Virus record (IMG/VR): IMGVR_UViG_2711768053_000012 | Coordinates: 1-12,001 of that record | Strand: one strand, 5' to 3' | DNA length: 12,001 nt | Source of the DNA: a virus | Taxonomy: Duplodnaviria > Heunggongvirae > Uroviricota > Caudoviricetes | Shown: positions 7,917 through 10,214 of the stretch, piece by piece | How the letters are laid out: each line of letters opens with the position of its first letter | Position numbering within the stretch: the stretch's first letter is position 1 | Translations under genes and position numbers: made by a program | Notes under the pieces: model-generated | Told to the model about the DNA's origin: nothing | The model's input: only the letters and a program-made list of their open reading frames with translations | Database searches by the model: none

Positions 7917-8127
7917 AAACGGTTTGCGGGAAAAGGAGAGTTAAGTAGAATTGCTGCGGGTGCTTGAGGCTATCTGCCTCAGGCATGAACACCAAAAGGC
8001 AGATAGAGAAAAGCCCCAGTTAACATTACGCGTCCTGCAAGACGCTTAACATTAATCTGAGGCCCAATCTATGTCTCACAAATGTAGGTTAGCCTCTTAC
8101 GTGCCGAAAGGCAAGGAGAAGCAGGCT

Positions 8128-8283
8128 ATGAAGCAGCAAAAGGCGATGTTAATCGCCCTGATCGTCATCTGTTTAACCGTCATAGTGACGGCACTGGTAA
8201 CGAGGAAAGACCTCTGCGAGGTACGAATCCGAACCGGCCAGACGGAGGTCGCTGTCTTCACAGCTTACGAACCTGAGGAGTAA
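8128..8283 (+). CDS. hokD: Hok/Gef family type I toxin (51 aa)
   Basis: Product MKQQKAMLIALIVICLTVIVTALVTRKDLCEVRIRTGQTEVAVFTAYEPEE matches my recollection of E. coli HokD (RelF) and aligns closely with Gef/Hok. AAGGAGA Shine-Dalgarno 8 nt upstream of the ATG at 8128. The track ORF starts at an upstream in-frame ATG (8071) giving 70 aa. The upstream leader is highly structured and a terminator follows. Confidence 0.85.
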   Translation: MKQQKAMLIALIVICLTVIVTALVTRKDLCEVRIRTGQTEVAVFTAYEPEE

Positions 8284-8351
8284 GAGACCAGGCGGGGGAG
8301 AAATCCCTCGCCACCTCTGATGTGTCAGGCATCCTCAACGCACCCGCACTT

Positions 8352-8376
8352 AACCCGCTTCGGCGGGTTTTTTATT
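8352..8376 (+). terminator. Rho-independent terminator after hok
   Basis: Hairpin AACCCGC-ttcg-GCGGGTT followed by TTTTTTATT. The 21 bp TAACCCGCTTCGGCGGGTTTT (8351-8371) recur identically at 10186-10206. Confidence 0.75.
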
Positions 8377-8421
8377 GGTTGACAAAATTATGAATATGCA
8401 CCAATATCTTGGTTGACAAAA
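8375..8421 (+). promoter_or_regulatory. Tandem 13-bp direct repeats TTGGTTGACAAAA (8375-8387 and 8409-8421) containing a consensus -35 TTGACA; candidate promoter/operator of the cassette
   Basis: Read from the sequence; repeats are 34 bp apart. The first TTGACA (8379-8384) with a 17-nt spacer gives a weak -10 CAATAT (8402-8407), placing the second repeat near the predicted transcription start. Confidence 0.45.
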
Positions 8422-8456
8422 GTCGTTTTTTGCACGGATTAGGCGGAGAAGTGTCT

Positions 8457-9050
8457 ATGCAGAAGCATCCATTCCCTTGGGAGTTCTTTCCTGAGTTAAC
8501 AGAGGATCGTTTAACCATTATAGCTGAGGAGTTGCTCAGGATACAGGATATTACTCATGAGTTATTGTCATCGCCCTATGATGATAATTACACTCGTGGT
8601 GGTTGTACATTTGGGCGTCAGCGGCAGGCGTTGCTACAAATGTGCATACGAAAGACATATGACTGGTTAAGACTACTTAATCCTGGCATGGATCTTACGT
8701 TTTCAATTGGGAATGTCCCTATTCGTTTCTTTACTGATGACGCAGATAACCCCAAGAAACGCGGTTTTTTCAAAAGAAATGATGCTGATCGACTCTTTGA
8801 GTCAGAGGAGACCACTCCAACTATGCATCGCTTTGTGGTTGAAAAGCCTGAATTTGAAGGCGAGGGTGGTAGAGTCATTTTTAATGGCTATAACGTGTTT
8901 GGTGAGATCGTGTCAACTTGGACATATGGTGCGGACCGTGTTGTTATGCTGAACTCTGTCGATGATGTACCTCCAGCACCGGTACCTATCGAACTAGAAC
9001 CTATCAGTGCGTCTAAGACTGAGAAGGAAAAGAAACAAAATAGCAAATAG
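8457..9050 (+). CDS. Hypothetical protein, first gene of the cassette (197 aa from ATG 8457; 213 aa if ATG 8409 is used)
   Basis: Track ORF 8409..9050. I prefer the in-frame ATG at 8457 (GGAG about 10 nt upstream) because the 8409 ATG lies inside the direct-repeat/-35 element. No recognisable catalytic motif; acidic Pro-rich C-terminus and Lys-rich tail. AT-richer than the flanks by eye. Confidence 0.6.
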   Translation: MQKHPFPWEFFPELTEDRLTIIAEELLRIQDITHELLSSPYDDNYTRGGCTFGRQRQALLQMCIRKTYDWLRLLNPGMDLTFSIGNVPIRFFTDDADNPKKRGFFKRNDADRLFESEETTPTMHRFVVEKPEFEGEGGRVIFNGYNVFGEIVSTWTYGADRVVMLNSVDDVPPAPVPIELEPISASKTEKEKKQNSK

Positions 9051-9060
9051 TGGGTGAAAT

Positions 9061-10182
9061 GTGTTTAACGGTACTAATTTAAGACTTGCTCGTCTGTATC
9101 ACGAGCTATCTCTGGAGCAGGTTGCTGAGAAGGTTGAAAAAACACGCCAGTATGTACAGCGACTGGAGTCTGGTTCAGCTACTCCATCCCCAGAGCTTAT
9201 AAATAAATTAGCCGAGGTTTTGCGCGTGAAGCCCGCCTTTTTCGAAGGGCAGGAACATTCTCCTGTTAATGAAGAGATTGTACATTTTCGTAAACGCGCC
9301 TCGACAAGGATGTCAACGAAGCTATCAACACTCGCTAAGGCTGAGTTTTATCGTCGTTTTATTGATGTATTTGAAGATAACCTTAATTTGTCACCTGTTC
9401 GATTTCCTGAATTTCGTGTCCATACACAAGAAGATATCGAGCGAGCGGCAGAAAAATGTCGTATTGAGTGGGGCTTAGGCTTTGGCCCAATTGAAAATAT
9501 GACTCGCCTTGCCGAGAAACTTGGGGCGTTTGTTACTTCATTTGACTCCGTTTCGGATGAAGTAGATGCACTGTCTGTTCCTCTACGAAGGCCTTTTATT
9601 GTTCGAAATACAGCTAAAAATTCACCTTGTAGGCAACGCTTTGATATTGCTCATGAGGTTGCCCATTTGATTCTTCATGAAGGAATTTCTACTGGGGATA
9701 GATTAACTGAATCCCAGGCAAACCGCTTTGCCTCTGCTCTGTTGCTTCCCAGAACGTCGATGGCGAAATATTTTCCAAGACCTGTGGGGGGGAGGATAAA
9801 TTGGCAGGGACTAAGCCAATTTAAGTTGACATGGAAAGTAAGTAAGGCTGCCATTGTTTACAGGGCTCATCAATTAGGACTTTTGACTGATGAGCAGTAC
9901 AGAACTGCATTTATGGGGTTGAAACGGAAAGGGGAAGCTATTGATGAAAAAGAAGATTATCTAATCCCTCATGAGCGTCCTGAGTTATTCCGTCGGGCTT
10001 TATCGTTTTTATTTGAAGAGTTAGGATACGACCCACAGCGTATAGCTGATGAAATGGATATAGAAGTGGACATTTTTTATGAGTTAGTAGGAGATGATCT
10101 TCCTGCGGTTCATGAACTGCCAGGAAGTGGTGATGTTGTTTCACTACAATCTTACCGAACTCTTAGAGGCAAAATTCACTAG
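9061..10182 (+). CDS. Fused HTH_XRE DNA-binding domain plus ImmA/IrrE-family (DUF955/COG2856-type) HExxH zinc metallopeptidase, 373 aa
   Basis: GTG start at 9061, first start after an in-frame stop and 10 nt after the upstream gene's stop. N-terminal HTH (LSLEQVAEKVEKTRQYVQRLESGSATPSPELINKLAEVLRV); HEVAH (HExxH) at about 9652-9666 inside FDIAHEVAHLILHE, typical of ImmA/IrrE peptidases; about 120-aa C-terminal extension. A terminator follows immediately. Confidence 0.8.
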   Translation: MFNGTNLRLARLYHELSLEQVAEKVEKTRQYVQRLESGSATPSPELINKLAEVLRVKPAFFEGQEHSPVNEEIVHFRKRASTRMSTKLSTLAKAEFYRRFIDVFEDNLNLSPVRFPEFRVHTQEDIERAAEKCRIEWGLGFGPIENMTRLAEKLGAFVTSFDSVSDEVDALSVPLRRPFIVRNTAKNSPCRQRFDIAHEVAHLILHEGISTGDRLTESQANRFASALLLPRTSMAKYFPRPVGGRINWQGLSQFKLTWKVSKAAIVYRAHQLGLLTDEQYRTAFMGLKRKGEAIDEKEDYLIPHERPELFRRALSFLFEELGYDPQRIADEMDIEVDIFYELVGDDLPAVHELPGSGDVVSLQSYRTLRGKIH

Positions 10183-10186
10183 GCAT

Positions 10187-10214
10187 AACCCGCTTCGGCG
10201 GGTTTTGTTTTTTC
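10187..10214 (+). terminator. Rho-independent terminator after the cassette (sequence-identical to the hok terminator)
   Basis: Hairpin AACCCGC-ttcg-GCGGGTT followed by TTGTTTTTTCT, beginning 5 nt after the stop at 10182. Confidence 0.75.

Follow-up and report, generated by a model that had tools for sequence, protein, structure and literature searches.

Tandem -35-like boxes at the promoter of a prophage RosmerTA cassette as putative operators of its HTH-peptidase antitoxin

A two-gene RosmerTA moron in a lambdoid prophage

The 12,001 nucleotides analysed here (the window) are the nin-like region of a lambdoid E. coli prophage, in which a two-gene moron is flanked by the hokD terminator and a ydfU-like gene. 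To its left are the sok RNA (7958-8133), a hok/mok gene (Pfam HOK_GEF; 8071-8283) and the hokD/mokW intrinsic terminator on the + strand (8352..8373; 8352-8369 in the terminator scan), whose stem-loop AACCCGCTTCGGCGGGTT and T tract form the left border of the cassette. The right border is a terminator of the cassette itself (10187..10212, + strand), which repeats the hokD terminator sequence; it was located by terminator scan and empty-site alignment, and downstream of it follow the ydfU-like ORF, a DUF968 gene and RusA. In two empty sites (L001 and L002) the flanks are joined directly and homology to the left flank ends at 8372; the insert spans 8373 to ~10186, between two copies of the terminator sequence TAACCCGCTTCGGCGGGTTTT (a 21-bp duplication) at 8350-8372 and 10185-10207, of which the empty sites carry one (1569-1586 in L001/L002). 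The layout of promoter, genes and terminator is that of a classic moron and, since the cassette lies directly behind the hokD terminator, it needs a promoter of its own.

RosmerTA is a widespread anti-phage system, and PADLOC assigns the two-gene cassette to it as a toxin-antitoxin pair. Two elements of the PADLOC/DefenseFinder definition, an RmrA and an adjacent, co-oriented RmrT, were found, encoded on a common strand 10 bp apart. The toxin candidate, rmrT (8457..9050, + strand), encodes 197 amino acids and matches PADLOC RmrT model PDLC03929 over its full length (E=1.2e-92), with no match to a Pfam family. Its AF2 model (pLDDT 81) has a pair of long helices and then a beta sheet, and a fold search with it returned no significant solved structure, the best being the ThaI restriction endonuclease (3ndh; E=0.11, TM 0.38). 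D94 and D95 (consensus FxDDP) are among its invariant residues, as is E129 (consensus VVEKP), and a nuclease-like fold is possible on the model.

The antitoxin candidate, rmrA (9061..10182, + strand), encodes a 373-amino-acid protein with an N-terminal XRE-type helix-turn-helix (HTH), an M78 (ImmA/IrrE) zinc peptidase and a helical C-terminal part, and is the only product of the cassette with a recognisable DNA-binding domain. Pfam finds HTH_3 (1.5e-12) and Peptidase_M78 (8.4e-17), and PADLOC finds RmrA PDLC03943 (4.3e-201 over 368/370 positions) together with matches to its capH and capP models; the HExxH motif (H198 E199 H202) is invariant in the alignment. The AF2 model (pLDDT 90) has an N-terminal HTH of five helices, which superimposes on the CapH HTH with an rmsd of 1.3 A. 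Foldseek matched RmrA to CapP (7t5t), IrrE (3dti), the CapH HTH (7t5u), DdrO (6jq1/6rnz), SinR (3zkc) and restriction-modification C proteins (1y7y/2b5a, C.AhdI); all these fold neighbours are members of repressor or repressor-plus-peptidase switches. Model confidence is lower in the linker between HTH and peptidase (residues 62-80), where an invariant H75-F76-R77 on a short strand is a candidate docking or self-cleavage site.

Of 5426 complete E. coli genomes, 23 carry the cassette, in each case within this prophage context, the flanks of which are common to thousands. Several of the hosts (TW10598, TW11681, B2C, WS1933D, UMNF18 and ETEC4090) we take, from their names, to be enterotoxigenic E. 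coli. INPHARED phage records held no copy of this RosmerTA subtype, the best RmrA match there being 41% identical. Phage Tritos carries another RosmerTA subtype (RmrA 32% identical, different RmrT family) in the same slot between hokD and ydfU (L200, 1750-1767), and with two subtypes in one slot the junction looks like a defence-moron hotspot of lambdoid phages.

Two bipartite units upstream of rmrT and their conservation

Immediately inside the left border, the preliminary description had noted two perfect 13-bp direct repeats 34 bp apart with a TTGACA in each. These proved to be exact + strand copies of TTGGTTGACAAAA at 8375-8387 and 8409-8421, 34 bp apart from start to start and separated by a 21-bp gap, with the hexamers at 8379-8384 and 8413-8418. 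They are the only two copies in the window and its longest local direct repeat. Among 300 sequences of 12 kb simulated with a first-order Markov model, 3 had a perfect local repeat of at least 13 bp within 60 bp (p ~0.01); the pair by itself is therefore modestly unusual, and its reality rests on conservation in related loci. We collected these by RmrT homology (35-100% identity) from one genome per species, viral contigs and metagenomes, retaining 144 loci with at least 120 bp upstream of rmrT, 90 of which are non-redundant and were used for bit values and period. Two tandem units precede rmrT in 140 of the 144, which come from Enterobacterales, Burkholderiales and Xanthomonadales (gamma- and beta-proteobacterial chromosomes), prophages and metagenomes, and the period from unit to unit is 33-34 bp in 84 of the 90 non-redundant loci.

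The alignment showed that the 13-mer is the left box of a longer bipartite unit of 23-25 bp, the second box of which is TGCA; this box and GTTGACAAA are near-invariant. In the window, GTTGACAAA-N10-TGCA occurs at 8378-8400 and 8412-8434, with no further exact copy in the 12 kb. Extended to GGTTGACAAA-N10-TGCA on the + strand, unit 1 (O1, 8377..8401) includes repeat 1, a -35 TTGACA and the TGCA box at 8397-8400, and unit 2 (O2, 8411..8435), some three helical turns downstream, includes repeat 2 and the TGCA box at 8431-8434. With position 0 set at the first T of TTGACA, the consensus unit is (G)GTTGACAAA at -2 to 7, a variable A/T-rich spacer and TGCA at 18-21, the internal spacing being fixed. 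Among the 90 loci, positions 0-7 carry 1.2-2.0 bits (1.4-2.0 in unit 1) and G19 and C20 2.0 bits, while spacer and flanks vary.

XRE-type HTH dimers usually recognise inverted repeats, and the earlier remark that direct repeats are unusual for such a dimer still stands. A dyad within the unit is best centred on position 11, with a mean of 3.7 (unit 1) and 4.4 (unit 2) of 8 matches against 0.7-2.9 of 8 at centres off the peak; this weak internal dyad is TTGACAAA-N7-TTTTGCAA, and the boxes themselves are direct repeats. A perfect 5+5 palindrome, ACCAA-TATC-TTGGT (8400-8413), spans the -10 region and the start of repeat 2. As a candidate classical XRE operator it was rejected, not being conserved in other loci, and is treated as coincidental.

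Unit 1 is predicted to be the sigma-70 promoter of the cassette. Its TTGACA matches the -35 consensus at 6/6 positions and is followed, after a 17-bp spacer (16-18 being required), by CAATAT on the + strand at 8402..8407. The latter matches TATAAT at 3/6 positions, below the per-hexamer threshold, and the consensus scan consequently made no promoter call. The assignment comes instead from the 90 loci, in which a -10 signature is conserved 17 bp downstream of the hexamer: A24, A27 and T28, equivalent to A2, A5 and T6 of a -10 element, carry 1.5, 1.1 and 1.6 bits, in hexamers such as CAATAT, CAACAT, GATTAT and GATCAT. Since the box is also the sigma-70 -35 consensus, RNA polymerase alone accounts for part of the conservation of unit 1. 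The predicted transcription start, ~8414-8416, falls inside repeat 2, as had been proposed, so that unit 1 covers the -35 element and spacer and unit 2 covers ~+1 to +22 of the predicted transcript, positions suited to an autoregulatory operator. The ATG that had been placed at 8409 is in fact the TTG of repeat 2, merely the first start-like codon of a mechanical ORF (8409-9050). Translation of rmrT is assigned to the ATG at 8457-8459 behind a Shine-Dalgarno GGAG at 8445-8448 (8445..8459, + strand), as in the RefSeq annotation of a 99.8% identical locus (L003, position 3174 of which is 8457 of the window).

Other assignments for parts of the unit were discarded. For TTGCA to be the -12 element of a sigma-54 promoter, a TGGCAC would be needed 4-5 nt before it, and there is none; as an extended -10, TGCA would be out of register (-17 to -14), and it is present in unit 2 too; and an NtrC half-site, TGCACCA, is confined to the enterobacterial clade, beta-proteobacterial loci having TGCAAGA.

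Two departures from the two-unit arrangement were seen among the related loci. One Providencia prophage contig (L076, the same as L339) has just one unit, a hybrid, a stretch of exactly one period (34 bp) between the repeats being deleted relative to L023, L075 and L343. The deletion removes the conserved -10, changing CATCAT to CATCAA; this is a natural promoter-down variant with one operator, or else a collapse in the assembly. A metagenomic locus (L120) has three tandem units ~130 bp upstream of rmrT, GGTTTACAAA..CGCAAG, GTTGACAAA..TGCAGG and GGTTGACAAA..TGCAAG.

We also searched viral contigs in reverse, from the pattern GTTGACAAA-N21-25-GTTGACA to the genes around it. Among the 120 matches listed, at least 14 have an RmrA gene downstream on their own strand, at a distance of 635-742 bp, and another (L319) lies upstream of an RmrT homologue, with no RmrA match at that threshold. 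At least 15 belong to coding repeats of two families of phage proteins, and at least four are orphan look-alikes; the rest we assumed to be chance. Orphan look-alikes that have both units complete with TGCA arms (L213 744-783(-), L238 787-826, L263 2405-2444 and L294 8433-8472(-)) lie in GC-rich viral contigs; neither RmrT nor RmrA follows them, and a clear -10 is missing. All four fall within long open frames, in which they would be read as an 11-residue VDKxxN[LM]Q-like repeat, and they could be orphan operators or coding coincidences.

Covariation of the units with each other and with the RmrA recognition helix

The two units of a locus vary together. At low-information positions they match much more frequently than by chance: position 22 is the same in both in 65 of 90 loci against an expected 30.5, and position 23 in 62 of 90 against 25.9. 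The right arms differ by clade: enterics have TGCACC, beta-proteobacteria TGCAAG or TGCAGG, xanthomonads TGCATAA and other clades TGCCAG or AGCAA. The left box varies with the recognition helix of RmrA. Where the box is TTGACA, the helix KTRQY[ILV][HQ][KR]LE is almost invariant, and TTGACG in both units occurs only in a clade with the helix KSKQFLSRVE or VSKQFLSRVE.

The arrangement extends to at least five other RmrA subfamilies (26-50% identical), in which a box lies at -35 and again just after the -10 with a period of 30-34 bp. Their toxins are non-homologous or distantly related, belonging mostly to other RmrT families (PDLC03933/34, PDLC03938 or none). Helices of the [ST]RQ type go with TT(G/T)ACA: ISRQAISSFE with GGTTGACA twice in the phage Tritos type (L200, L376, L362 and L364), VSRQAISQFE with GTTGACA twice on a Zymomonas plasmid (L203), VSRQSVHSFE with TGGTTTACA twice (L363) and VTRQAVSRYE with GGTTTACA and GGTTACA (L375). 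The [ST]HQ type goes with TTGC(C)A in three loci: VSHQMISKYE with GGTTGCCA and GGTTGCA (L385), VTHQMISNYE with GGTTGCA and AGTTGCA (L361) and ISHQMISKYE with GGTTGCCA and GGTAGCA (L407). An SDS helix, YSDSMISRWE, goes with TATGCAA, in the form of TTATGCAA twice (L365). Subfamilies with a TSK helix have a palindrome adjoining the -10, ACATCAAATGATGT in L377 and ACCTCAAATGAGGT in the E. coli OLC-716 system, from which it follows that RosmerTA subfamilies use either palindromic or direct-repeat sites.

These box pairs in diverse loci were identified by curated reading, automated scoring being too noisy in AT-rich DNA (a pair appeared in up to 129 of 200 shuffles). Searches with single proteins for relatives of two other subfamilies added one informative locus (L407), and a search of viral contigs for KTRQY-type HTHs accompanied by other toxins returned only the known RmrT loci. 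Drawn from few independent clades and with no phylogenetic correction, the covariation of helix and box is suggestive and points to RmrA as the reader of the units.

This covariation bears on whether a host factor might bind the units instead, either a global regulator or region 4 of sigma-70 on a -35-like decoy at +1. The identity of the box with the -35 consensus in most subfamilies speaks for such a reading, but we consider it unlikely, because the box variants track the cassette's own recognition helix and the site accompanies the cassette across host classes and phage contigs. Within the window, moreover, the motif is found at the cassette only and, by inspection of the sequence, it is unlike the LexA, CRP, FNR and sigma-54 consensus.

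A second possibility is that the repeats are merely the -35 elements of two tandem sigma-70 promoters (P1 and P2) and that no repressor is involved. Tandem promoters are frequent upstream of morons and both copies of TTGACA are perfect, yet the sequence behind the second copy argues against a promoter there. At -10 spacing from it the window has GGATTA (17 bp) or GATTAG, and the positions equivalent to A2, A5 and T6 carry 0.4, 0.2 and 0.1 bits in the 90 loci, as opposed to the conserved signature after unit 1. The start codon of rmrT lies ~24-45 nt past the TTGACA of unit 2 in most related loci and, in most beta-proteobacterial ones, only 24-31 nt past it, upstream of any P2 start; in the window a P2 start (~8449) would come after the Shine-Dalgarno sequence. 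Tandem promoters would also leave the invariant TGCA and the concerted TTGACG, TTGCA and TATGCAA variants unexplained, and we regard them as improbable. With the -10 signature absent and the start codon too near, unit 2 is better described, from these comparisons, as operator-like than as a second promoter.

Because unit 2 is predicted to be transcribed and contains a self-complementary CAAAA/TTTTG stretch, it could in principle be an RNA element in the 5' UTR that serves rmrT translation or stability. We find this very improbable. The fold of the rmrT 5' UTR is no better than that of shuffled sequences (z=-0.54), there being no sign of unusual RNA structure, and no Rfam family was found at the 5' UTR; furthermore, unit 1, which is not transcribed, carries the identical motif, and this speaks for a site that is recognised as DNA. 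Least credible of all is that the repeats are a by-product of mobility (a target duplication, att-like site or recombination scar) with no regulatory role: the cassette is indeed an insertion between duplicated 21-bp terminator sequences, but what is duplicated is the terminator rather than the 13-mer, the two 13-mers are both within the insert and on the same side, the empty sites are without any 13-mer copy, and the repeats keep a constant distance from rmrT across unrelated genomic contexts.

Proposed autoregulation and comparison with known systems

Taking together the observed repeats, their conservation, the promoter signature, the identity of the cassette and the way in which the units covary with one another and with the HTH, we propose that 8375-8435 is a self-contained control region for RosmerTA, in which unit 1 would be the promoter and both units operators for RmrA in a negative autoregulatory loop. 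We give this reading a probability of about 0.72. The preliminary description had suggested a promoter plus a probable autoregulatory operator, and this remains the best reading of the comparative data, through the conserved -10 and the covariation of unit and helix; autoregulation is supported by these data, whereas RmrA binding, its stoichiometry, repression and the peptidase step are what we infer by analogy. In the proposed scheme both units would be recognised by the N-terminal XRE-type HTH of RmrA, which, probably as a pair of dimers or a higher oligomer, would occupy them on one face of the helix and block the -35 element, the spacer and the start site. Expression of the toxin-first operon would thereby be kept low and self-limited. 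A cue from phage infection would then activate the fused M78 peptidase, the HTH would be removed or inactivated, and its loss would derepress the operon and release RmrT, a step modelled on CapH/CapP, DdrO/IrrE and ImmR/ImmA.

A bolder extension, which we put forward tentatively and regard as rather doubtful, is that RmrA-type antitoxins read -35-like, head-to-tail boxes at -35 and +1 in a non-palindromic mode as large oligomers, that this design is ancestral to many RosmerTA subfamilies, with box and helix co-evolving, and that self-cleavage of the HTH couples derepression to toxin release in a single step. In the literature searched, cleavage of the RmrA HTH is a matter of speculation only (PMC10440598), and no publication dealing with a promoter or operator of RosmerTA was found. 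RosmerTA itself is known and autoregulation by HTH antitoxins is textbook knowledge; the promoter/operator element described here is undescribed in that literature. If confirmed, -35-like direct repeats at -35 and +1, kept across subfamilies, would be a modest surprise. The analysis supplies a precise cis element for the control of RosmerTA, GTTGACAAA-N10-TGCA occurring twice, which is predicted to act as a compact, strong and self-repressed promoter module of a prophage moron. Natural variants with which specificity can be addressed are available in the TTGACG, TTGCA and TATGCAA boxes, the Providencia one-unit deletion and the three-unit locus, and autoregulation by RmrA with derepression on peptidase activation is a directly testable hypothesis.

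Several characterised switches share parts of this design. In DdrO/IrrE of Deinococcus and ImmR/ImmA of ICEBs1, as proposed here, an M78 peptidase inactivates a promoter-bound repressor of the XRE family. Repressor and peptidase are separate proteins in both, however, and the genes regulated are those of DNA repair or element excision; the DdrO site (RDRM) is a 17-bp palindrome. The fold neighbours of the RmrA HTH also include SinR and the restriction-modification C proteins, which are small proteins with an XRE-type HTH. They bind two adjacent promoter sites as tetramers, and SinR takes tandem as well as inverted half-sites, but their sites are 10-20 bp apart and they have neither a peptidase fusion nor a toxin-antitoxin pairing. 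HTH antitoxins of type II toxin-antitoxin systems, such as HipB, MqsA (noted in PMC10440598) and HigA, bind multiple operators across their own bicistronic promoter. RmrA would resemble them in being an HTH antitoxin with several operators over the promoter of its own operon. Their operators are clear palindromes, whereas the boxes here are arranged head to tail three helical turns apart; in addition, the box itself is the -35 consensus and RmrA also carries a peptidase.

Within RosmerTA, the systems examined experimentally for neutralisation of RmrT by RmrA and for phage protection are those of E. coli OLC-716 and Gordonia phage Kita, the toxins of which differ from the RmrT described here. 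The OLC-716 system was verified experimentally after cloning with its native promoter (Millman et al. 2022, 10.1101/2022.05.11.491447). It has the same gene order, rmrT then rmrA, and an RmrA with HTH and M78 domains, but its RmrT has 239 amino acids and was judged unrelated in sequence, and the helix of its RmrA is LTSKTISNYEK. Its ACCTCAAATGAGGT is a 14-bp palindrome adjoining the -10, and TTGACA direct repeats are absent (10.1101/2022.05.11.491447, supplementary file 11).

The closest parallel in domain content is CapH/CapP, in which an XRE-type HTH repressor and an M78 (ImmA/IrrE) zinc peptidase preside over a defence operon (CBASS and others). CapH has been proven to repress its operon, and the M78 peptidase CapP, whose trigger is ssDNA, cleaves it (Lau et al. 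2022, bioRxiv 10.1101/2022.04.27.489752). CapH binds a conserved 22-bp promoter site, for which oligomerisation (as a tetramer) is required (bioRxiv 10.1101/2022.04.27.489752). Its site lies upstream of the -35, whereas the RosmerTA units here cover the -35 and spacer and the +1. RmrA, moreover, fuses both activities in one ORF and is encoded 3' of the toxin in the same operon, unlike the separate repressor and peptidase genes, divergent and upstream, that define CapH/CapP, and the cassette is therefore not a member of that class. The homology at the level of domains nevertheless suggests that RmrA may work in a similar way without being a member.
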